Positions 53,922 to 64,000 of a stretch of DNA of 64,000 nucleotides are shown here, piece after piece. The notes beneath the pieces are model-generated. The model saw nothing but the letters and a program-made list of their open reading frames with translations, did not search any database and was not told the DNA's origin. A program made the position numbers and the translations under genes. Location of the stretch: the NCBI GenBank assembly GCA_014727915.1, contig WJMO01000006.1, positions 384,001-448,000 on the forward strand, in the 5' to 3' direction. How positions within the stretch are numbered: position 1 is the stretch's first letter; every line of letters starts with the position of its first letter. Source of the DNA: Candidatus Altiarchaeales archaeon (GTDB taxonomy: Archaea; Altiarchaeota; Altiarchaeia; IMC4; SCGC-AAA252-I15).

Positions 53922-54395
53922 TTACCAGCTGACTGGTATCTCCTCTGGTAGGAAGCTCGAGTACGTCCGGTTTTCATCCATTCTTATGTCAAAGCCGCAT
54001 TGGAGGTCGTAGCACCTGAATACCGCATCCTCAAAGACCAAACCCTTCTTCATCACAATAGGCAGCGGAACGCCTTCGGAAGATAGAACATCCCCCCCAA
54101 CAGTCTTCAGAGAACATTGTCCGCCGCATTCCACCAGAAGGATGTCTACTGGATAGCATTCGAGAGGGCATTTCTGACATCTTTTCACGCATATGTCCGA
54201 AGAAACATGCTTGGAGGCGCCTGACAGGGATATGCGAGTCTCAGAACCTGAAATGGCATGTACCGCGTATCTTTCAGGTGCTGTAAGCCCGTAAACGTAG
54301 AACCCACCATCATATAACGCGTAAAACCCTAGCAGGACGTGGGGAGCCAATACCACGGCTATGAGAGTGAATCCCTTTCTCAGACGGTCATCCAT
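53922..54395 (-). CDS. Hypothetical Cys-rich membrane-anchored protein
   Basis: N-terminal TM, nine Cys; start abuts the PCNA stop. Confidence 0.6.
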   Translation of the reverse strand: MDDRLRKGFTLIAVVLAPHVLLGFYALYDGGFYVYGLTAPERYAVHAISGSETRISLSGASKHVSSDICVKRCQKCPLECYPVDILLVECGGQCSLKTVGGDVLSSEGVPLPIVMKKGLVFEDAVFRCYDLQCGFDIRMDENRTYSSFLPEEIPVSW

Positions 54396-55135
54396 CATAC
54401 GGACTCTATCCTAGGGGCAAGGTAGTATATGACACGCCCGTCTCCTATGCTGTACTCCACCTTGAGGGGTGCGTCGGTCTTCAGGCTGATCATCACGACA
54501 CTCGGTATCTCAGCAGACTTGAGGATGTTGTTCAGGTAGTCGAGGGAATATACTGAGCGGGCCGGGGACTTCACGCTTATGCTCAGCAGCTTGTCCTCCG
54601 GGAACTCGATATCGGCGGAGCCCGTGTCTCCGTCGCTCTTGATGTTGAATCCCTTTTCCAGCTTCAGGGCAACGTGGTTGCTGATGAGCTCCGCATCCTT
54701 CAGCGCGTCCTTGATCATGTTCGGGGCTATCTTAACGTCAGCTGTGAACTCTATCTTCGGCTCCTTCGGGGGGTTGCCTGTGGAGTCGATTATTGCGGTG
54801 GTGAACTGCCTCCTCGTCTCGCCCTTAAAGACCATCTTGAGCCTGTTCTCGGCGAGCTTAAGCTCTATCTTGTCCTCGGGCTTGGAGCGTTTGGTGATCT
54901 TGCTGAGCTCAGAGAAGTCAACACCCAAGGATATGGGATTTTCGCACTTGAACTTCTCGAACGCCTTCGACGGGATCTCGAAGTCGACCAGGGCTATCTG
55001 GCTTGGGTCCATCGCCCTCAGCTTTATCCCTGAGGAGTCCACCTGGAAGGTTCCCTCGTCGATAAGCGCAGCGATGGCCTCAATGCTGTTACGCCAGGAT
55101 TTGGTATCGTTTATTACCGCTTCAAACAACTGCAT
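54395..55135 (-). CDS. pcn: DNA polymerase sliding clamp PCNA
   Basis: LRAMDPSQIALVD, YSLDYL, PLKVEY, YYLAPRIE. Confidence 0.97.
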   Translation of the reverse strand: MQLFEAVINDTKSWRNSIEAIAALIDEGTFQVDSSGIKLRAMDPSQIALVDFEIPSKAFEKFKCENPISLGVDFSELSKITKRSKPEDKIELKLAENRLKMVFKGETRRQFTTAIIDSTGNPPKEPKIEFTADVKIAPNMIKDALKDAELISNHVALKLEKGFNIKSDGDTGSADIEFPEDKLLSISVKSPARSVYSLDYLNNILKSAEIPSVVMISLKTDAPLKVEYSIGDGRVIYYLAPRIESV

Positions 55136-55177
55136 CACCCCTGAAATTGTTAGGTATATGGAAGTGGGGGTTAAAAA

Positions 55178-56716
55178 TCAACCGCCTCTAAAGCGGGCTA
55201 CGATGTGCTCTCTGCCCAGGCTGAGCATGAAAGCCGCAGCCTTGGGGCCCCGGTCATTTCCGATGAGCACCCTGTATATTGCCTTGAACAGTTTAGGCGG
55301 CTTAACACCGTTGGACCTGGCGACCTCGTATATTTTCTTGTGGAATTCCTCCGAGCTCCAATCACCATCCAGAAGACCCACAATCTCCTCCAGGCACTTT
55401 CGCTCGGAGTCAGATAGGCTGTCCCTCTCCCTACCAGCCTCTCCCTCCGAGTTCAACGTGAAGCGCAGATGATCGGGGCCGTATTTTTGAACCCAGTTGC
55501 CAGCCAACCTAACACGCCTATTAAGCCTTTCAACGTCGAATCCAGCGTATCCCATAGACTCCGCCTTGGAGGAGTACTCGCCTTCGAACGCCACTTGAGC
55601 TAGAACCGCGCATAGGGTGAAGGGAACATTAAGATACTTGGGTTCGCCCACTTGAGCGAGGTCGTACATCCTCGCCAGACCCATATCACCTTCCTGTCTC
55701 TTGTGGTATATCCGCTCGGCCTCGTCGTACTCGTCTGTGAGGTTGGATAGCAGGGATAGGTTAATGTCCCGCTGCTTCATGAGCCGCTTGTACATGAAGT
55801 ACTTAAGCACCTCCGGCTCGGCTATCACCAGCCAGTCAGCCAAGGTTATGACGTTACCCTTCGAGCTGGATATCTTCTCGCCGTTCAAGGTGAAGAACTC
55901 ATATACCAGGGGGACGGGGGGCGTCCAGTCGAACACCTCCTCCGATATTATCTTGCTGGTCTCATACGAGCCCCCTGCGGCAGCATGGTCTTTGCCGAAG
56001 GGTTCGCAGGTTACCTTGAACCGCCTCCACCGGGCAGCCCACTCAACCCTCCACGGCAGCTTACCCATGCCCTTGGAGGCGTCGCTGACGCCCTTGTGGC
56101 CGCATCCCTCGACTTCGCCGCCGGACACACCGGTTGAAACGCACTCGTAATCCGCCTTTAACCCATCGACTCCAAAGACTTTTGTGGTGCTTATCTTCCC
56201 GCATTTCTCGCATATGGGAGTCCAGGGCAGATAATCCTCTGGCAGGGGATCACGCCGGAATCTGTTCAATATATCCCTGATTTCAACCCTCTTCTCAAAC
56301 GCTGTTCTGATCTCCTCCACCAACTCCCCGTTCCTATAGAGGTCGGTGCCAGAGTGGACTTTAGGTTTTACGCCGAACTCTGACAAGTCCTGTATAAAGG
56401 GTTGGGCGAAGTGGTCGACGAAGTTACTGTGGCATCCGTCCAGGTCGGGGAGGTCCTTGACGGGGAACCCAAGATAATCATCTAATCCTTCCATTCCAGC
56501 GGGCACCTTCCGGAAGGGGTCGCTGTCGTCGCTTATCCAGATCAACTCCGCCTTGAGACCCGACTCCAACGCAGCCTTCCGTATGCAGTCCCCGCGGATG
56601 ACATCGCTTGCATTACCGATCTGAGGACGCCCAGATATGGAAGTGCCGGTGGCTATGACATGCTCCCCGCCCCGCTCTTCCAGCAGGCTGACAACATCGT
56701 CGCTCCAGTGCAACAT
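55178..56716 (-). CDS. lysS: Lysyl-tRNA synthetase, class I
   Basis: HWSD, SG..QIGN, D.FRKVP, KLPWRVEW, GKDH...GGS, KISSSKGN, GPK. Confidence 0.96.
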   Translation of the reverse strand: MLHWSDDVVSLLEERGGEHVIATGTSISGRPQIGNASDVIRGDCIRKAALESGLKAELIWISDDSDPFRKVPAGMEGLDDYLGFPVKDLPDLDGCHSNFVDHFAQPFIQDLSEFGVKPKVHSGTDLYRNGELVEEIRTAFEKRVEIRDILNRFRRDPLPEDYLPWTPICEKCGKISTTKVFGVDGLKADYECVSTGVSGGEVEGCGHKGVSDASKGMGKLPWRVEWAARWRRFKVTCEPFGKDHAAAGGSYETSKIISEEVFDWTPPVPLVYEFFTLNGEKISSSKGNVITLADWLVIAEPEVLKYFMYKRLMKQRDINLSLLSNLTDEYDEAERIYHKRQEGDMGLARMYDLAQVGEPKYLNVPFTLCAVLAQVAFEGEYSSKAESMGYAGFDVERLNRRVRLAGNWVQKYGPDHLRFTLNSEGEAGRERDSLSDSERKCLEEIVGLLDGDWSSEEFHKKIYEVARSNGVKPPKLFKAIYRVLIGNDRGPKAAAFMLSLGREHIVARFRGG

Positions 56717-56769
56717 CAGTATAGATAATAAAATGAAGCTATTAAAGGAATGCGTCGCTAATCATAAAC

Positions 56770-56829
56770 GGCGGTGTGATGACGCGAACAACCTCTGACA
56801 TATGATGAGTGATGGGCGACCTGACCGCC
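56770..56829 (+). ncRNA. Box C/D guide sRNA, predicted 23S A-loop methylation guide
   Basis: C GTGATGA 56776-82, 12-nt guide, D' CTGA 56795-98, C' ATGATGA 56802-08, 12-nt guide, D CTGA 56821-24; terminal stem GGCGG/CCGCC; TATTAAA about 25 nt upstream. Confidence 0.9.
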
Positions 56830-56932
56830 AAAAAAAGGTCACAAGCACTTCACAGGTGCGTCCCGTGAACGCGGGATGCGCCGTTTGTCGTCGGCAAACT
56901 CCGACGATGAGTGATGGGCGACCTGACCGCCA
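56804..56932 (+). mobile_element. 75-bp hairpin micro-insertion (56831-56905) between perfect 27-bp direct repeats (56804-56830, 56906-56932)
   Basis: GATGAGTGATGGGCGACCTGACCGCCA twice; insert has ACTTCACAGG and two stem-loops; mobility is inferred. Confidence 0.6.
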
Positions 56933-56954
56933 TTTGAAGTTATGTTATGATAAG

Positions 56955-57833
56955 ATGAAGGACGAGATCAAGAGGAGCATCGATCATATGCTGGAGACGT
57001 CGCCGATCCGGAGGACCTTCTGGCACCAGGACGAGAAGGTGGAGGGCCTCAGGTATGGGATACAGCAGGGCGACGACGGAGCCGTGGTCGGAGACCTCGT
57101 GTACAACATGGAAGGCCCCTACCCCTTGAAAACCGGGCGGAAAACCGGTTTACTCCACAGTATAACCGATATCATCGGCATGGGCGCAAGGCCACTTTAC
57201 GCGTTCAATGCCATGCAGGTGGACAGCATAAAAGAGGCGGTTGAGGTTTCTGAGGACCTGAAGAAGCAGGCCAACGGAATCGGCGTTCCCATCATCGGCG
57301 GGAACACCCAGATGGAGAACGACCTGAAGCCGTGCATAAGCTTCGTCGTAGTTGGCAAGCTCATCCGGGAGCCATTGGCCGACTGCGGCTGCAGGATAGG
57401 GGACAAGATAGTCATGGTAGGCCATGTTATGGACGGCACCCTTGGGGAGAGGGTGTACCGGGCGAAGGTCAAGTACAAGACAATGCTCGAACTCTACGAT
57501 GAAGCGGTGGATATCCATGCGGTCAAGGACGCGAGCCGGGGAGGGTGGTTCGGGAACCTGGCTGAGATGCTGGTGAAGAGCAAGCGGGGATTCAAGATAA
57601 CGGCAGTGCCATACGCGAGCCCGACTAGGTACATGGGCACTTACATGATAAGCGTCCCCAAAAAGGAAGTGGACAAGGTGGTGTCAGTGGCAGCCAGGAA
57701 CAAGTGCCCATGCGTGGAAGTCGGGCAGGTGATGAAAGGACTTTACATAAAGCTCGGAGACGAGATGCTGGTAACTGAGGCTAGGATGAAGAAGCTGATA
57801 AGGGGAATGCCCTACCGGAAGCCGAAAAAATAG
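56955..57833 (+). CDS. AIR synthase/PurM-like (SelD/ThiL-related) protein
   Basis: GDDGAVV, DIIGMGARP, IIGGNTQ, KDASRGGW.G.L.EM; start ATG 56955. Confidence 0.85.
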   Translation: MKDEIKRSIDHMLETSPIRRTFWHQDEKVEGLRYGIQQGDDGAVVGDLVYNMEGPYPLKTGRKTGLLHSITDIIGMGARPLYAFNAMQVDSIKEAVEVSEDLKKQANGIGVPIIGGNTQMENDLKPCISFVVVGKLIREPLADCGCRIGDKIVMVGHVMDGTLGERVYRAKVKYKTMLELYDEAVDIHAVKDASRGGWFGNLAEMLVKSKRGFKITAVPYASPTRYMGTYMISVPKKEVDKVVSVAARNKCPCVEVGQVMKGLYIKLGDEMLVTEARMKKLIRGMPYRKPKK

Positions 57834-57837
57834 TTTT

Positions 57838-58755
57838 TTATTCTATGAAGTTGTTGCGCGTGTACTTGTTCTGGCACTTGCCCTCCCCATCACGTGAGAT
57901 GAAGCACTGTTGCATGGGACCGCAGGGCTCCACCAGCTCCTCCACAACGTTGGTTTCACAGCTTGAAGCCCTTGTTTCCGGGTTTTTGCAGAAATGGGAG
58001 ATAGTAACCCTGAAAAGGTCATTTTCCCTGCACTCATACTCTGTCCTTATGGACCCGCAGTCGCCGTCGTCGTTGCAGCGGATGTAATCCGCCAATGTGG
58101 TGGTAGTCGACTCGTCCGCCTCGTCCTGGTCGCAGATGGTGTTGTTGTTCAAGTCAAGGCAGCACCCCAGGCCGAATCTCATGTAAGGCGGCGCACAAAC
58201 AATCTGTGGGAGAGTCGTCGTAGAGTCGGTCGTTGACGTTGTCGAGGTTGAAGTTGTTGAAGTTGTTGACACTGTAGTTGATGTCTCGATCATCTGACTC
58301 TCTTCTATTGTCGAGTTGGATTCAACCACGACCGCCTCCGGTTGGCTGTGGGTCAAAGCTAGGACGATGGATATGAGGAACATCCCGCCAAACACTGTAA
58401 CCAGCAAAAGGAATATGAAGATCAGAGAGTACTTCAACGGCTCTGGCATCCGGGAGAGTCTGCGATATGGGTCGGAGTGTTTGATCTCATCAACGCTTGA
58501 CCTGGCCCAAGTTGAAGCTTCATCTGCGAAGGACTTGGCCTGCACCTTCTTCTCTTCAACCTCCAACGCAAGCAGTTGCTTCTTCAACTGCTTCTTTTTC
58601 AACCTAATCTCGGAGGATTTACTCTCCAGAGGGGTTTCACCATCGGAGACAGGGTTTTCAGGAGCCTTCTTGGACTTGCCTGCCGTCTTTTTCTTTGCCT
58701 TCTTTTTAGCCTTCTTACGGCTCTTCTTGGCTTTTTTCGCTTTTTTAGCAGCCAT
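57838..58755 (-). CDS. Membrane protein with Lys/Ala-rich N-tail, TM, Ser/Thr linker and Cys-rich ectodomain
   Basis: AAKKAKKAKK..., TM, TTSTTST, CAPPY...G..CCLD.N.N.ICD. Confidence 0.75.
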   Translation of the reverse strand: MAAKKAKKAKKSRKKAKKKAKKKTAGKSKKAPENPVSDGETPLESKSSEIRLKKKQLKKQLLALEVEEKKVQAKSFADEASTWARSSVDEIKHSDPYRRLSRMPEPLKYSLIFIFLLLVTVFGGMFLISIVLALTHSQPEAVVVESNSTIEESQMIETSTTVSTTSTTSTSTTSTTDSTTTLPQIVCAPPYMRFGLGCCLDLNNNTICDQDEADESTTTTLADYIRCNDDGDCGSIRTEYECRENDLFRVTISHFCKNPETRASSCETNVVEELVEPCGPMQQCFISRDGEGKCQNKYTRNNFIE

Positions 58756-58824
58756 CGTACCCCACAGAGAAGAAAAATAAGTTATAAGATATAGTAAATA
58801 AGTCATAAAAAATAAGTCATGGGG

Positions 58825-59397
58825 TTATTTTGTGGTTGTGGAGGCTAGAGAATCGCCTCCGCATGCTCCGCCGCTGCAACCTCCCCCGCATATGATATCT
58901 ATCACCTTTATGAACCCGTCATCACAGTAGTACTCGTATATCCTGTCACCGACACAGTAGTCGTAGTATTGGATGCCCTCAAAATCAACCCATCCCTTGA
59001 TGTCAGTGTTGATGAGGCCTTCAGCTCCGTCGGAGTCGACGCATACCATACCTGCTGAGGTGGTGGCTGATAGGAGGTCGGGCATTAGTGGAACATGAAC
59101 ATCTTCGTCAAGCGCACTCGTGGAAGATGAAGGCTTAACTTCAGCTGAGGACTTCGAAGTCGCCACACCAGGTTGTGTTGTTGAAGTGGTAGCGTGCGAC
59201 ACCGGCCTGCGGAGAGTGTCCATTGATGTTGAAGTAGACACTACTATCTCGAAGTTGTCCCGTTCTCTTGGAGTTTCTATGGTGGTTGTTGACTCGTTGC
59301 CATAGAAGGTGACAGAGTGCACTTTTGGTTCTGGCTGGTAGCAGCAGCACAGGCACCCCGACAACAATACCAGGAAGGACAGGACCAGATACCTCAT
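58825..59397 (-). CDS. Lipoprotein with Ser/Thr linker and Cys-rich CxDSDG domain
   Basis: LLSGC lipobox followed by LCCC; CVDSDG...KG...DYC...EYYC...C.GGC..GAC. Confidence 0.75.
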   Translation of the reverse strand: MRYLVLSFLVLLSGCLCCCYQPEPKVHSVTFYGNESTTTIETPRERDNFEIVVSTSTSMDTLRRPVSHATTSTTQPGVATSKSSAEVKPSSSTSALDEDVHVPLMPDLLSATTSAGMVCVDSDGAEGLINTDIKGWVDFEGIQYYDYCVGDRIYEYYCDDGFIKVIDIICGGGCSGGACGGDSLASTTTK

Positions 59398-59545
59398 CTC
59401 AGTTAGTGGATTGGAATAAATAAAGATAAACACAGTATTCAACAGCCAAACCCCCAAGACACGGAAGGGCGATAATCGTGGTTAAACGCGCCTTTTAAGT
59501 GGTTTTTGGGTATTTTGGTTTTTCAGGCTTTGATTTTGGGGTTCG

Positions 59546-60001
59546 ATGACGGTCAGGGTAAGGCGGTTCAGGGATGGGGACGCGAGGAAGGCTTCTGACA
59601 TGATACGGAAGACCCAGAGGGAAGTCAATAGTAGATACTACAGTAGGAGCGTCATCGAAAGACTATGCAAGACCATGACACCAGGCAAGATGAAGGAGTA
59701 CTCGGAGGAGAGGATCTTCTACGTCGCGGTCGACGGAGAAAAAATAGTCGGGACTGTGACGTTGGCAGAAGACAATCACATCGGCACATTATTCGTGCAC
59801 CCACGATACCATAACATGGGCGTGGGAAGGAAGCTGATGGAGAAGATTGAGGAAGTTGCGCGAAAGAGAGGTGTGAAGAGGATGCGCTTGAGCGCGGCAG
59901 TGAACGCCGTCGGATTCTACAAAAGGATAGGATACAAGCATCCGAGAAAATTCAAAGACAAATGCTGCAGCACAGTATACAAGATGAGCAAGAAACTCTG
60001 A
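59546..60001 (+). CDS. GNAT acetyltransferase
   Basis: LFVHPRYHNMGVGRKLM, NAVGFYKRIGY. Confidence 0.92.
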   Translation: MTVRVRRFRDGDARKASDMIRKTQREVNSRYYSRSVIERLCKTMTPGKMKEYSEERIFYVAVDGEKIVGTVTLAEDNHIGTLFVHPRYHNMGVGRKLMEKIEEVARKRGVKRMRLSAAVNAVGFYKRIGYKHPRKFKDKCCSTVYKMSKKL

Positions 60002-60018
60002 CAGGGAAAAAATGGTTT

Positions 60019-60671
60019 TTTGCCGCCGGCCTAAACCGCGAGGCTACCGCCCCCCAGTTTCAAGTTCTTCCTGACCCCCGAAACGAAATGTGCCATCTAC
60101 GATGGCACAGAATGCATTATCTAACGAATAACTAATTACTTTTTCGGATTTTCAATCAGAAAATCATAAACAAAGGGAAACAACAAAAAGATCACCGCAG
60201 TTAAAATAACACCCAATAACTCCCAAAAACGTGGGTAAAACAGGTTTAATATCAATGGGGAAAAAATGAGATACACTATTCCAACGAATAATCTTCTGTT
60301 TTTATCAACAAAAACAATACCTCCACCAATTAATCCGCCGATATAGAAGCCCAAACGTTTTTGACTATTGTCTAACTGTTTTCCTATAAAATTAACCTAT
60401 GATGGTACTTCCATTAATTAGGGCTAATGATGAAAGAAAAAATACTGATAAAAGTATTATTAGAACCGGTGTGATATTTTTGAAATAAACAATAGTATTA
60501 GGAATTCCTAAAAAGAAAACAGCAGCAATCAGGGTTATTTCAAGATTATTAATTCTATCAGCAGTTGTATAGTCCTTGATTTTCTTCATTGTTGGTAGTG
60601 CGTTCGGTGGGGTCTTTAGACCCCACTGTACTCGCTGCGCGTGTAAACGGAGCGAGCCGTTTGCCGCCGGC
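60019..60671. mobile_element. Decayed mini-island at the tRNA-Phe 3' end
   Basis: 12-bp repeat TTTGCCGCCGGC at 60019-60030 and 60660-60671 (tRNA 3' end); AT-rich cargo; no integrase. Confidence 0.5.
60136..60589 (-). pseudogene. Frameshifted AT-rich membrane protein gene (about 150 codons)
   Basis: MKKIKDY...STIIG* (60392-60589) continues in another frame as NFIGKQLDNSQKRLGFYIGG... to the stop at 60136. Confidence 0.55.
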
Positions 60672-60758
60672 GAGATTTGAACTCGCGACACCTCGGTTTC
60701 TACGCATTCGAGTTTTTGCGCTTCAGCCGAGTGCTCTCCCAGTCTGAGCTACAGCGGC
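60662..60758 (-). tRNA. tRNA-Phe(GAA) with 23-nt intron at 37/38 (60698-60720)
   Basis: GCCGCTG/CGGCGGC acceptor, GCTC/GAGC D arm, CTCGG/CCGAG anticodon stem, GAA anticodon, GCGAG-TTCAAAT-CTCGC T arm; CCA not encoded. Confidence 0.95.
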
Positions 60759-60830
60759 GATTTGTGAATTGGCTGGAGTGTTATTTGTAGGTTTGTTTGG
60801 TATAAAAGTTTGTCATTCGGATATTTTAAC

Positions 60831-61586
60831 GTGGCTCGTCAGTTGGAGTTTTGGGACCGGCGAACAGGGGGGCACAGTGATGATGCGCTGCGCTTGATTG
60901 AGGAGTTGAGGGAAGGAAAGGTCGAGGACATGGGGCCCATAATGGATGGGGAGGCGATCGTCGGCCGGGAGTGGGTTTTCGGGATTGGAAAGAGCAGGGT
61001 TGCGTTGAGGATGCGAGTCGACAAAGAGGGGAGTAGTGGGGAGTCACCGGCTTATGTGTTCACAATGAGGGATGCAGTCAGGTATCCGATAGCCGAGGAA
61101 GAGGGCGGCCCATACAGGTTGTTGGTCGACAGGAAGGACGAAAGCCCTGTTGAGGTGCCTGTGATGTTCGCGGGAAGCATAAAGTTGAGGAGGGGAAGCG
61201 GTTGGGAGGGCAGCCAACAGCCGAACACATGGGACATGGAAGTCACCCTACCGAACGGCCTCAAAGATCTTGACGAAGACAAAGCCACCCTTTCAAGGGC
61301 CGCGTTAAAGAGGTTGGCTAACGTCTGCGATAGCAGGGCAAAGAAGATATGGGCCGGCACCGAGAGGAAGCCAGCCATAGTCTGCAGATACAGTGAAGAA
61401 AGCCCCGGGGGGGATGAACGAACGGAATTTCTCACCGATGTTCTTGGATTCAGGGAGATATATCGGCTTGGGGGTAGCCAGAAGGGCATGACAAGGGAGG
61501 ACGACATAGGCGACCAGGTGACGCTAATCTACAACCTGAACGTAGGACCTGATAGGAGGGGAAGGCCTCCGCAAAAACCGCGGTAG
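60831..61586 (+). CDS. Orphan hypothetical protein
   Basis: About 250-aa open frame; TATAAAA about 30 nt before GTG 60831. Confidence 0.6.
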   Translation: MARQLEFWDRRTGGHSDDALRLIEELREGKVEDMGPIMDGEAIVGREWVFGIGKSRVALRMRVDKEGSSGESPAYVFTMRDAVRYPIAEEEGGPYRLLVDRKDESPVEVPVMFAGSIKLRRGSGWEGSQQPNTWDMEVTLPNGLKDLDEDKATLSRAALKRLANVCDSRAKKIWAGTERKPAIVCRYSEESPGGDERTEFLTDVLGFREIYRLGGSQKGMTREDDIGDQVTLIYNLNVGPDRRGRPPQKPR

Positions 61587-61590
61587 AAGT

Positions 61591-61848
61591 TTATTTTATC
61601 TCTGCTTTGGTGCCGACTGCCTGCCCTGGAAGGCCGGGGTTGAACTGGGCGAGGACCGCGCCCTTGCTGCCGTGGGGTTTGCTCACTTTCCCCGCCATCT
61701 TCTTCCCGGAGGAGGTGGTCCACTCAACGGTCTTGCCCACCAGCTTCTCAGCATCGTCCTTGCTTTTGCTGTCTTTGGGCTGGAGTATCATCTGATTCGT
61801 GTTCTGGGTCCTCCGACCACGCCTATAGTTAACGATAACAGCATCCAT
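61591..61848 (-). CDS. rpl35ae: 50S ribosomal protein L35Ae (eL33)
   Basis: NYRRG..TQ, GK....HG..G.V.A.F..GLPGQA.G. Confidence 0.95.
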   Translation of the reverse strand: MDAVIVNYRRGRRTQNTNQMILQPKDSKSKDDAEKLVGKTVEWTTSSGKKMAGKVSKPHGSKGAVLAQFNPGLPGQAVGTKAEIK

Positions 61849-61961
61849 CTTGAGATCAAATGGGTTTTATTATAATGCAGAGGTAGTTTAAAAAGGGCTG
61901 GTAAGTGGCGTCTTTGACACTAACTCTTTTTTAAGCTCGTTTTCATAATCTAAAACCCACG

Positions 61962-62498
61962 ATGGAGGAGATACGCTTTCACGGGCGGGGCGGCCAGGGA
62001 GCCGTCACAGCCGCCATGATACTAGCCGTCGGGGCTTTCAAGGACGGCAAGTACACTCAGGCGTTCCCCAAGTTCGGAGTGGAGCGGCGCGGCGCCCCCG
62101 TGGAGGCGTTCACCAGGATTTCTGAGGATTTCATCAGGAGGAAGAGCCAGGTATACGAGCCCAATTACCTGGTCGTCTTGGACAGCACACTGTTCGGTGC
62201 CGTTGACATAACCGCCGGTTTGAAAGAGGGCGGCATGGTCATAGTCAACACCAACCAGAGCCCGGAAGACCTTGGGCTGAAAGGTTTGAACGTGAAGACA
62301 CTGGACGTTTCCAAACTCGCACTGGACATGCTAGGCAGGGACATCGTGAACACCGCCATGCTCGGAGCATTCGGGGGATTCACCGGTTTAGTATCGCTTG
62401 AAGGGCTGTTCGCTGGCGTAGACGAGCACTTCTCAGGGTCGCTGGCGGAGAAGAACAAGAAACTCGTGGAAGAGGTTTACAATCAATCGAAAAAATAA
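61962..62498 (+). CDS. porG: Pyruvate/2-oxoacid:ferredoxin oxidoreductase gamma subunit
   Basis: [34 protein letters not shown]. Confidence 0.95.
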
Positions 62499-62499
62499 G

Positions 62500-62796
62500 A
62501 TGGTCGACATAGGCAAGAAGAAGGTCGGGGACGTGGAGGTCACAACCGGTTGCGTGCTACCCAGCGACGGGAGCACCCAGAAGAACAAAACCGGCGGATG
62601 GAGGGCACTGCGTCCTGTTACGGACCATGAGAAATGCACCGCCTGCGGCATATGCTGGGTGTACTGCCCGGACGCCTCGCGGATGAAATCGGACGACGGC
62701 AAATACGACTATGTTGAAGACTACTGCAAAGGGTGCGGGATATGCGCGGACGTGTGCCCCGTCAAATGCATCGAGATGGTGGTGGAAGAGAAATGA
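62500..62796 (+). CDS. porD: Pyruvate/2-oxoacid:ferredoxin oxidoreductase delta subunit
   Basis: KTGGWR..RP, CTACGICWVYCPD, YCKGCGICADVCP. Confidence 0.95.
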   Translation: MVDIGKKKVGDVEVTTGCVLPSDGSTQKNKTGGWRALRPVTDHEKCTACGICWVYCPDASRMKSDDGKYDYVEDYCKGCGICADVCPVKCIEMVVEEK

Positions 62797-62891
62797 CCGT
62801 CAACTTCACAGGCATGTCAGGGTGGCTAAGCGAAGCGCGCGCCGCCCATTTTGATGAAACTTTTGGAAAAGTTTCGGTGGAGGAGAAATGA
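62781..62891 (+). mobile_element. 79-bp hairpin micro-insertion (62797-62875) between 16-bp direct repeats; forms a 32-aa mini-ORF at 62793-62891
   Basis: GGTGGAAGAGAAATGA (62781-96) vs GGTGGAGGAGAAATGA (62876-91); ACTTCACAGG 62803-12; palindrome GAAACTTTT-GG-AAAAGTTTC. Confidence 0.6.
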
Positions 62892-64000
62892 AGGACGTGA
62901 TGGAGGCAAGCCATGCCGTGTCAGAGGCTGTGAAAGCCATCGAACCCGACGTAATAGCAGCCTACCCTATAACCCCGCAGACGCACATTGTCGAGCGGAT
63001 CAGCGAGTTCGTCGCCAACGGCGAGATAAAATCAGAGTACATACGGGTTGAGAGCGAGTTCAGCGCCATATCAGCCTGCCTCGGAGCTTCAGCCGCTGGG
63101 ACCCGGGCCTACACGTCAACTTCCTCCCAGGGGCTGGCGTTGATGCACGAGGTACTGTTCATAGTCTCGGGCATGAGATTGCCAGTGTGCATGAGCGTCG
63201 TGAACAGGGCTTTGAGCGCGCCCATCAACATATGGAACGACCACCAAGACAGCATATCAGAGAGGGACACCGGGTGGATACAGTTGTACGTTGAGACCGC
63301 GCAGGAAGCCTATGACATGACCATCATGCAGCACAGGATAAGCGAAGACCCGAGGGTACTGCTTCCGTCGATGGTGTGCATGGACGGATTCACACTATCG
63401 CACGTTTACGAGGCAGCGGACATACACGACAAGAAGGACGTGGACTCGTTCCTGCCAAAGTACAAGCCGGTTCATGCGGTGTTGGACCCGAAGGAGCCAT
63501 TGACGCAGGGGCCCATCGGATTTCCAAGCCACTATATGGAGTTCAGGAGCGAACTATGCAAGGCAATCGACGGTTCGCTCGACGTCATCGAAGAGGTCAT
63601 GAAGGATTACAGCAAGAAATTCCCCTGCACCATCGAGAACTCAAGACCCAAGGAATACTACCACGTGGAAGAGCACAGGATGGAAGACGCGGACGTGGTG
63701 TTAGTCGCCATGGGATCCGTATGCGGCACCATAAAGGTCGTCATAGACGAGCTAAGGGAGAAAGGAGTCAAGGCGGGTTTGTTGAAGCTCATAACCTACA
63801 GGCCGTTCCCGGCCGAACTGCTGAAGGAAAAGCTCAAGGGTGCGGGCAAGGTCGCCGTAGTCGAGAAGGCACTTTCTCCGGGTCTTGGAGGCCCATTGTA
63901 CCATGAGATATCCTCCGCCCTATACGAGTGCGAGGAAAGGCCTGAACTGAGGAACTTCATCGTGGGCTTGGGCGGGAAGGACGTGCGGCTCGACCATGTC
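62888..64000 (+). CDS. porA: Pyruvate/2-oxoacid:ferredoxin oxidoreductase alpha subunit (3' truncated)
   Basis: MKDVMEASHAV..., AYPITPQT, VESEFSA, TSSQGLALMHE, NRALSAPINIWNDHQD; absent from the ORF track because it runs off the window. Confidence 0.95.
   Translation, partial: MKDVMEASHAVSEAVKAIEPDVIAAYPITPQTHIVERISEFVANGEIKSEYIRVESEFSAISACLGASAAGTRAYTSTSSQGLALMHEVLFIVSGMRLPVCMSVVNRALSAPINIWNDHQDSISERDTGWIQLYVETAQEAYDMTIMQHRISEDPRVLLPSMVCMDGFTLSHVYEAADIHDKKDVDSFLPKYKPVHAVLDPKEPLTQGPIGFPSHYMEFRSELCKAIDGSLDVIEEVMKDYSKKFPCTIENSRPKEYYHVEEHRMEDADVVLVAMGSVCGTIKVVIDELREKGVKAGLLKLITYRPFPAELLKEKLKGAGKVAVVEKALSPGLGGPLYHEISSALYECEERPELRNFIVGLGGKDVRLDHV

Follow-up and report, generated by a model that had tools for sequence, protein, structure and literature searches.

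A family of short two-hairpin insertion elements with long flanking repeats at gene ends in one order of Altiarchaeota

Two inserts of one plan in the window

The window analysed here is a stretch of 64,000 nucleotides from the genome of a Candidatus Altiarchaeales archaeon (assembly GCA_014727915.1, contig WJMO01000006.1, positions 384,001 to 448,000 of the forward strand). Towards its right end, a gene for a C/D box small RNA (sRNA; locus 1) and the porD/porA junction (locus 2) are each associated with a short insert, and each insert is followed by a second copy of the sequence that precedes it. Both inserts belong to a family of non-coding insertion elements, about 50-125 bp long and confined to one clade. 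The family is previously undescribed: the literature searched held none such in Altiarchaeota, nor any family of short elements with long target duplication. The genome of the window, called G000, comprises 1.81 Mb in 13 contigs and is 90.6% complete; relatives, contigs and loci are likewise cited by our own numbers (G, C and L).

The inserts measure 75 bp (56831-56905) and 79 bp (62797-62875). They lie where the earlier note on this DNA had placed them and have the common architecture that it described, with target, insert and downstream repeat of the target in this order (Table 1). The sRNA at locus 1 is conserved and was present in all 14 relatives read. The 16-bp direct repeat (DR) of locus 2 contains the ribosome-binding site (RBS) and the ATG of porA together with the overlapping TGA of porD. 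Both inserts fold as two hairpins (hp1 and hp2), the second of which ends at the final base before the downstream repeat. The z-scores for DNA folding of the two inserts are -2.2 and -2.3 on the + strand and -1.0 and -1.2 on the - strand; for RNA folding they are -4.2 and -1.4 on the + strand and -2.1 and -1.2 on the complement. A cmscan search of window positions 54000-64000 against Rfam, with E up to 1, returned only tRNA and weak C/D sRNA matches, and the inserts matched no Rfam family in this search save for a weak sR1 match over the downstream repeat.

A third copy in the window abuts the 3' end of a tRNA gene carried by the opposite strand (60662-60758). No flanking repeat was found for this copy. 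It is absent at the corresponding tRNA gene in five relatives (G001, G002, G004, G013 and G012), and G009 has an hp2 of the same type there.

Table 1. Parts of the window copies and of their host features (DR1 and DR2, upstream and downstream direct repeat).
Feature	Position	Strand	Evidence or remark
C/D box sRNA, host of locus 1, left complete	56772..56829	+	Rfam sR2-like match, 32.4 bits, E 3.8e-4, below the Rfam gathering score of 42
DR1 of locus 1: C' box, guide, D box and 3' end of the sRNA (sRNA 3' half)	56804..56830	+	27/27 identical to DR2 (GATGAG...CGCCA)
Variable 5' tail of locus 1, with GTCA and most of ACTTCACAGG	56831..56854	+	Tails differ among copies in length and sequence
hp1 of locus 1: 12-bp hairpin, two G:T pairs on this strand	56855..56882	+	Folding
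Spacer and type A hp2 of locus 1 (GTCGG-CAAACT-CCGAC, 56890-56905), abutting DR2	56883..56905	+	19-mer conserved in 20 of the 61 genomes of the phylum
DR2 of locus 1: spare downstream sRNA 3' half	56906..56932	+	Missing in 11 relatives with an empty site
Third window member, B-type core: hp1 and hp2 (AACGG-AGCGAG-CCGTT)	60609..60661	+	Last base abuts the tRNA gene 3' end
DR1 of locus 2: porD end, whose stop TGA overlaps the ATG	62781..62796	+	15/16 identical to DR2
Variable tail of locus 2, with ACTTCACAGG	62797..62819	+	Inspection
hp1 of locus 2: 7-bp stem, loop with TAAGCGAAGCG	62820..62847	+	Loop motif recurs in A-, B- and C-type copies
Spacer ATTTTGAT and type C hp2 of locus 2 (8-bp A/T-rich palindrome, 62856-62875), abutting DR2	62848..62875	+	Copies in G002 and G011 have the same layout
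DR2 of locus 2: RBS and start of porA	62876..62891	+	Single copy in 12 relatives

Types, structure and distribution of the family

The earlier note had proposed that the two loci belong to a larger structured, non-autonomous family. A repeat scan, hp2 pattern searches and a covariance model yielded the further copies that this proposal called for. Scanning G000 for direct repeats spaced 30-250 bp apart gave about a dozen further inserts of the same plan. By our own count the genome holds ~24 copies, all of them different, with no near-identical pair. The core of the element runs from the long hairpin hp1 through a spacer of 3-9 nt to the short terminal hairpin hp2. At least three types of hp2 can be distinguished, plus a fourth kind with a different 3' end that occurs at tRNA 3' ends. 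Type A is GTCGG-CWAACT-CCGAC, as at locus 1; type B is CACGG-AGCGAG-CCGTG, exemplified by the copy beside the window tRNA gene; and type C is an A/T-rich palindrome, as at locus 2 and at C6:97691. The motif TRAGYGWARCG is common to the hp1 loops of A-, B- and C-type copies. The types are thus modular relatives, and locus 2 is a true relative of locus 1.

In a genome collection of 185,579 species, the exact A-type 22-mer was found in 31 stretches, and the records concerned are either titled Candidatus Altiarchaeota or Altiarchaeales or are unclassified archaeal ones. With one mismatch allowed, the A-type motif occurs in 20 of the 61 genomes of the phylum, all 20 in the order of the window, and the reversed-pattern control gave 0. 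A covariance model built from 14 copies matched 38 of the 61 genomes; all 38 are among the 49 genomes of the order, and the 12 genomes of the two other families had no match. Matched genomes have 1 to 30 copies each, G000 having 8. The A- and B-type hp2 patterns gave 0 matches in the 2.9 million viral contigs of IMG/VR, and carriage by viruses was dropped on this ground. A metagenome scan based on HisF produced 80 loci, mostly from distant organisms, with the hp2 motif upstream in 0/80.

The two hairpins are conserved in different ways. Among 39 distinct A-type copies, hp1 keeps the same end register in 31 while its sequence differs throughout. Compared with shuffled sequences, these copies have a mean folding z of -3.4 (33/39 below -2), and the forward strand is more stable than its complement in 31/39. 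G:T pairs account for 47 of the 470 predicted pairs, and it is because the stems use them that only one strand folds well. In the 14-copy alignment 94.7% of the cells pair, against 80.3 +/- 1.6% in shuffles and 27-53% with slid partners. Moreover, 8 of the 17 pairs have changed on both sides. Double-change cells number 32 against 10.0 +/- 2.4 in shuffles, a value reached by 0/500 of them. One U:G pair of hp1 is retained in 11/14 copies, and hp2 is invariant in the alignment. Thus hp1 is kept as structure and hp2 as sequence, and the folded form is that of one strand. A reading of the GAG/CGAA internal loop of hp1 as a K-turn was rejected, since on inspection (no tool used) it misfits the canonical motif.

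The 10-mer that the two inserts share is not a family character. The earlier note had regarded GTCA followed by ACTTCACAGG as a hallmark and had put a low chance on a shared 10-mer. The sequence is indeed exact at both loci (56847-56856 and 62803-62812), with GTCA upstream of each. However, ACTTCACAGG occurs 19 times in the 1.81 Mb of G000, mostly within open reading frames (ORFs), where by our own arithmetic ~3.5 would be expected, so that at about five times the uniform expectation it is a weaker marker than the note had computed. None of the 34 A-type copies from other genomes has it in combination with GTCA, nor do the copies at porD/porA in G002 and G026. As 17 of the 19 genomic copies are unrelated to any insert, ACTTCACAGG was abandoned as a probe. 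The tail of the porD/porA copy of G002, equal in length to that of locus 2, shares 8/23 of its bases with it (own count). Searches for the insert tails elsewhere in G000 (14-mers, up to 1 mismatch) gave chance-level matches alone.

Flanking repeats, empty sites and gene ends

An anchored repeat, scored 13 or more, is present in 19 of the 34 A-type copies of other genomes. It is 13-85 bp long, starts 0-3 bases after hp2 and is perfect in most cases, whereas the same test at random positions of G000 succeeded at 29 of 20000. The duplications are far longer and more variable than those of DDE transposons and of MITEs (miniature inverted-repeat transposable elements), as the earlier note had said.

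Empty sites were found in relatives for the sRNA, porD/porA, hisF, C3:498777 and tRNA-Thr sites. At the sRNA site, 11 of the 14 relatives read, same-genus G001 included, have a single sRNA without insert; G015 has a different A-type insert with the same 27-bp boundaries, and G011 a C-type insert with other boundaries. The porD/porA junction is single in 12 of 14 resolved relatives, again including G001, and C-type elements are present in G002 and G026. The start of hisF is empty in 22 of 26 genomes and occupied in G000, G001, G012 and G025, always from ATG to +38 and always by type A. The trpE/trpG site has type B in G000, G001 and G002 and is empty in G013. Lineage-specific insertions are those at C3:498777, with a 71-73-bp perfect repeat and an empty site in G001, and at tRNA-Thr, absent from G001 and G002, as well as the B-type copy beside the window tRNA gene. 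L193 (porD/porA, site not resolved), L221 (trpE at a contig end) and L021 (G006) were left out of the counts; L025 and L055 have hisF sequences identical to those of two of the four occupied genomes and were not recounted. In L021 (G006:C28:7200-7600) the conserved C/D sRNA has its halves swapped, with the C'/D half first, which could be the relic of a repeat-plus-element stage.

The copies are located at the ends of tRNA, sRNA and protein genes and, because of this position, the whole gene is always kept, in agreement with the earlier claim that the host feature is left intact. In copies with a repeat, the tail is always the side on which the whole gene is found, while the spare fragment is next to hp2. 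A functional end often marks the outer boundary of the repeat: the stop codon in porD and trpE, the start codon in hisF and L038, the tRNA discriminator base in C4:52741, C12:332290 and L046, and the sRNA 3' end. Selection and a copy of the gene end borne by the element are both options for this exactness. The inner boundary in tRNA genes falls in the T-loop in the 3' cases and in or beside the D-loop in the 5' cases. Two recent insertions in ORF 3' ends, C3:498777 and C11:6574, give an immediate TGA. Where the repeat ends at an ATG, the tail has GGAG or GAGG 6-9 nt upstream. The spare start of hisF opens a leader ORF of 38-55 codons, which runs through the antisense element without a stop in 4/4 occupied genomes and ends 7-11 nt into hisF (L064 in G001, L056 in G000, L071 in G012, L068 in G025). 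This arrangement looks like translational coupling. The hp2 within the leader ORF translates as SEFADDK or similar.

The two ends of the element differ. The hp2 end is precise, as no more than 0-3 extra bases separate it from the downstream repeat. At its upstream end the element is ragged or cut short, with a tail of 1 nt at C11:6574, 4-6 nt at C3:498777 and tens of nt elsewhere, and in L036 a tail of ~700 nt that includes an hsp20 gene. Units made up of a promoter, the hsp20 gene and an A-type element stand in tandem in L036 (minus strand, about 900-2340) and L028, and the element lies directly upstream of a TTTTATATAC promoter. Longer composites with four hairpins are present in L026, L042, L054 and G037. 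Six loci of G037 were read; in four of them a 5'-truncated unit comes after a full one and begins in the loop of an upstream hairpin. Three of the six (L272, L273 and L275) have a portion of hp2 duplicated directly behind their last unit. In L273 these repeats, of 16 nt, lie on either side of the second unit, which suggests that this unit was inserted into the hp2 of a copy already present.

Repeat and element together form tandem arrays at hisF of G025 and in L040, L051, L036 and L271. These show that exchange between repeats takes place, and such exchange can delete, amplify or homogenise copies. The hisF repeats are near-perfect (38/38, 40/40 and 38/38; 37/38 in G000), and perfect identity is seen in many repeats, also at synonymous positions and where several genera share the insertion site. 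Two readings of the perfect repeats at shared sites are possible: recent independent insertions, exact to the base and in type, or old copies whose repeats evolve in concert. The trpE repeats of G001 are of another kind. They are identical at 33/48 positions and both encode MNKGRALLKALGV, with 7 synonymous and 2 non-synonymous codon changes; relative to G000, the upstream copy has 14 differences and the downstream copy 7. Allele-like divergence near the outer boundary is also seen by eye in L039, L029, L041 and C6:97691. The perfect and the allele-like repeats favour some process by which the repeat is carried or exchanged along with the element.

Candidate routes of insertion

As enzymes the earlier note had suggested an HUH/RAYT-like nuclease or a reverse transcriptase, and the searches lend support to neither. 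In G000 (90.6% complete), none of RVT_1, Cas1, Y1_Tnp (PF01797), TnpB (PF07282) or DDE_Tnp_1 was found; other DDE families were not searched. An all-against-all comparison of the 2504 ORFs of G000 returned no transposase-like multicopy gene, one integrase pair excepted. RVT_1 is present in 7 of the 61 phylum genomes, but only 2 of the 20 that carry the A-type motif have it, and it is absent from copy-rich G052, G045, G015 and G008; with no co-occurrence with the elements, a reverse transcriptase was rejected as mobiliser. The gene downstream of three copies (L028, L036) was considered as a transposase and proved to be a small heat-shock protein gene.

The only mobility gene of G000 is a tyrosine integrase of 394-403 aa with a C-terminal zinc ribbon. 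Two copies, 83% identical, adjoin tRNA-Asp and tRNA-Glu, and a fragment lies beside tRNA-Thr. Of the 61 genomes, 19 have this family, but among the 20 that carry the A-type motif only 7 do, and it is missing from copy-rich G045 and G008. The seven integrase loci outside G000 had no A- or B-type hp2 within the locus read, and the integrase islands at the tRNA-Glu and tRNA-Asp 3' ends had no hp1-hp2 at their borders. With neither co-occurrence nor adjacency, the integrase was likewise rejected as mobiliser. The integrase proteins (G000:C3:114155-115366, G000:C4:3100-4284; L224-L227) are 79-84% identical between genera and families, against 70-77% for their hisF DNA, a comparison which suggests that the integrase moves laterally. 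At G000:C4:3100-7958 the tRNA-Asp-adjacent integrase is followed by ORFs that by eye resemble a Vsr-type endonuclease, a cytosine methyltransferase and an ATPase, which would make this region a small defence island.

The reading that we favour, with a probability of about 0.5, is that the elements are copied in asymmetrically, starting at the foot of hp2. Insertion would proceed by copying and not by cut-and-paste. A DNA 3' end that has advanced 13-85 nt into a gene end would come off its template, in many cases at a loop (the D- or T-loop in a tRNA gene, for instance, or the hp2 of a resident copy). It would then copy the folded, single-stranded element from the hp2 foot over a variable distance toward the 5' end, re-anneal behind its point of departure and copy that stretch again. 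A protein, host-encoded or still unrecognised, would probably bind hp2. Later, copies would be inherited, lost or multiplied into arrays by repeat exchange, and this exchange would also keep the repeats alike. In practice the outcome is an "insertion with long target duplication" brought about by a dedicated micro-element. What counts in favour of copy-in is the precise hp2 end, tails from 1 to ~700 nt, the 5'-truncated units of G037, the boundaries at tRNA loops, the lack of a dedicated enzyme among those sought in G000, and the tandem arrays, read as repeat exchange.

Several observations weigh against copy-in. Neither a free single-stranded form nor a circle nor an RNA of the element has been observed. 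The strict conservation of the hp2 sequence points to a sequence-specific protein, and none can be named. The same site, inner boundary and hp2 type recur in different genera (hisF, 4/4 type A; trpE/trpG, 3/3 type B; porD/porA, 3/3 type C). Copy-choice does not account for such shared sites unless the copies are old and inherited, in which case the perfect repeats (38/38, 40/40 and 48/48) need concerted evolution. Nor does copy-choice explain why the outer boundary falls exactly at a stop codon, a start codon or a mature tRNA or sRNA 3' end in about eleven events by our reading. Moreover, some repeat pairs differ as alleles under coding constraint do (trpE of G001), and since G000 has no near-identical copies, the perfect-repeat insertions have no visible donor. 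As a tentative proposal, to which we give well below even odds, the mechanism might be new to prokaryotes: a sequence-specific factor that binds hp2 in its folded state would join or prime the 3' foot of the hairpin at loops of single-stranded DNA where genes end, or the element would home to its target by means of a copy of it that it brings along, the gene-saving duplication being built in in either case. If so, the elements would represent 'self-healing' mobile DNA of a new archaeal class that depends on none of DDE, HUH, Cas1, reverse transcriptase or an adjacent integrase.

An alternative is a miniature integrative cassette of the att type. A small circle composed of a copy of the host gene end, a tail, hp1 and hp2 would cross over at a fixed point beside hp2, either through a tyrosine recombinase that reads folded hp2 as an integron integrase reads attC, or by homologous recombination. 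As the circle carries the gene end, the upstream repeat would be brought by the element and not made by fill-in. We consider this route unlikely, although several observations speak for it: outer boundaries exactly at gene boundaries, an intact gene on the tail side in every repeat-bearing copy, one inner boundary and one hp2 type at a given site across genera, tails that provide a Shine-Dalgarno (SD) sequence before hisF and the L038 gene, repeat pairs that look allelic (trpE of G001 and, by eye, the N- or C-termini in L039, L029 and L041), the hsp20 gene as cargo of one unit, arrays that resemble accretion, strand-specific folding, and a tyrosine integrase as the sole mobility enzyme of G000. 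The distribution of that integrase and its setting in ordinary islands count against it, as do the lineage-specific insertions with ~71-bp perfect repeats inside ORF 3' ends, where the protein is truncated (C3:498777, C11:6574), the 0-3 extra bases at the hp2 joint, the difficulty of recombining circles of 100-200 bp, and the absence of any copy from viral contigs. Integrative and cis-mobilisable elements, and attC sites, are similar in that their gene-end repeats restore the gene, as is the case here, in their tandem accretion and in the folded single-strand site. The present elements differ from integrative elements in having only 50-125 bp between the repeats, no adjacent integrase, repeats within ORFs and extra bases at the joint.

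A classical non-autonomous transposon, moved in trans by a transposase with widely staggered cuts (IS1634/IS4-like, or a casposase) that is unrecognised, lost or external, appears improbable. Long variable direct repeats and empty sites would suit it, and IS1634 reportedly makes long direct repeats of variable length, but one end of the element is ragged, DDE_Tnp_1 and Cas1 were not found in G000 and there are no multicopy ORFs, the repeats of 13-85 bp show no ruler, and no genome has near-identical copies. Terminal inverted repeats are lacking as well, in line with the earlier note: by inspection, without a formal inverted-repeat scan, the two ends of C11:6574, of C3:498777 and of both window inserts are unlike. 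MITEs are also small, non-coding, repeated and flanked by target duplications; they differ in having terminal inverted repeats, a short target duplication of fixed length and a cognate transposase. Casposon- or CRISPR-like integration by Cas1 is not matched either, as Cas1 was not found in G000 and the repeat length is not fixed. The REP/REPIN and IS200/IS605 elements have strand-specific end hairpins that act as folded single strands, and insert beside a fixed motif of 4-5 nt without target duplication. Here the duplications are long, no common motif was seen by eye at ~28 joints, and no Y1_Tnp was found. A precise 3' end, 5' truncation and target duplications of variable length, all three observed here, are the classical insertion marks of long and short interspersed elements (LINE/SINE). 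Even so, target-primed reverse transcription of an RNA with hp2 as its 3' end is very improbable, given the rarity of RVT_1 and its absence from G000 and the copy-rich genomes, and the lack of an A-rich 3' tail. At gene 5' ends, moreover, the folding strand is antisense to the host transcript, so that host promoters would not make the RNA. It is equally hard to believe that the elements are not mobile and are host regulatory or RNA-processing modules, formed by tandem duplication and recombination between diverged alleles, or artefacts of assembly. The hisF leader ORF is kept open through the element in all four occupied genomes, hp1 pairing and hp2 sequence are kept in the orthologous-looking porD/porA copies of G000 and G002, and a duplication-plus-recombination route is described by Lim et al. 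(2012; PMC3457768). However, the same layout of hp1 and the conserved hp2 recurs at dozens of unrelated sites and in 38 genomes from independent assemblies, the empty state is the majority state, and nothing in the DNA on either side could have given rise to the element cores.

Among known phenomena, insertion with long target duplication, on which Nobusato and colleagues reportedly wrote in 2000, comes closest. In bacteria, Furuta et al. (2010) describe kb-sized restriction-modification genes inserted in this way, with long, variable target repeats and without a further gene for mobility; start or stop codons often lie within the repeats, through which amplification is proposed to occur (PMC2853133). 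The threshold given there for a long target duplication is >30 bp. Many of the repeats described here are shorter, at 13-29 bp. According to Lim et al. (2012), such insertions are described "not yet for short DNAs", and another possible route is a tandem duplication with later recombination involving a diverged allele (PMC3457768). The elements described here share with these cases the long variable repeats, an empty site in a relative, the lack of a transposase and the repeats at gene ends. The bacterial cases are one-off gene cassettes of kb size, whereas here a conserved element of 50-125 bp, archaeal and with one precise end, is inserted; the insert is non-coding and not a gene cassette, with hsp20 in one unit. 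The palindromic repeats with coding potential of Methanocaldococcus jannaschii, to which the earlier note had pointed, are likewise archaeal, small, palindromic and tolerated in or near genes, and the hisF copies, which are read through in frame, may be set beside them. To our knowledge, no long target duplications have been described for those repeats.

If this picture is true, a long-standing puzzle becomes testable, since the earlier cases known since 2000 are one-off insertions of large genes with no known mechanism. In this family the active end (hp2) and the folding strand are defined, each genome supplies dozens of independent joints, and relatives have empty sites. A mechanism that has lacked an explanation for 25 years could thus be dissected on a case that recurs, in an archaeal lineage that has received little study, and the protein or polymerase activity responsible could be sought. 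The family would also be a handle for asking how archaeal gene ends tolerate or co-opt insertions, through read-through leader ORFs and new SD sites, and for correcting the annotation of Altiarchaeota genomes, where the copies make fragments of tRNAs and genes.

Some further sequences adjoin or resemble the elements. The tRNA-Glu gene at G000:C3:113963-114135 (L223 1306-1478) has a 98-nt intron with an A/T-rich palindromic hairpin and a G/C hairpin that resemble parts of a C-type element; mobile hairpin elements and tRNA introns may be related here. Another kind of two-hairpin insert, with repeats of 3-5 bp, lies inside or beside B-type hp2 at G000:C12:332380-332445 and G000:C3:208406-208450. 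The same kind is present in G001 and G002 (L237, L238) in the T-loop of a spare tRNA 3' fragment, the tRNA being that which matches window positions 60662-60758. Finally, short hydrophobic ORFs of ~18-27 codons, noted by eye, adjoin B-type copies near tRNA genes at window positions 60420-60580 and at G000:C12:332520-332580.

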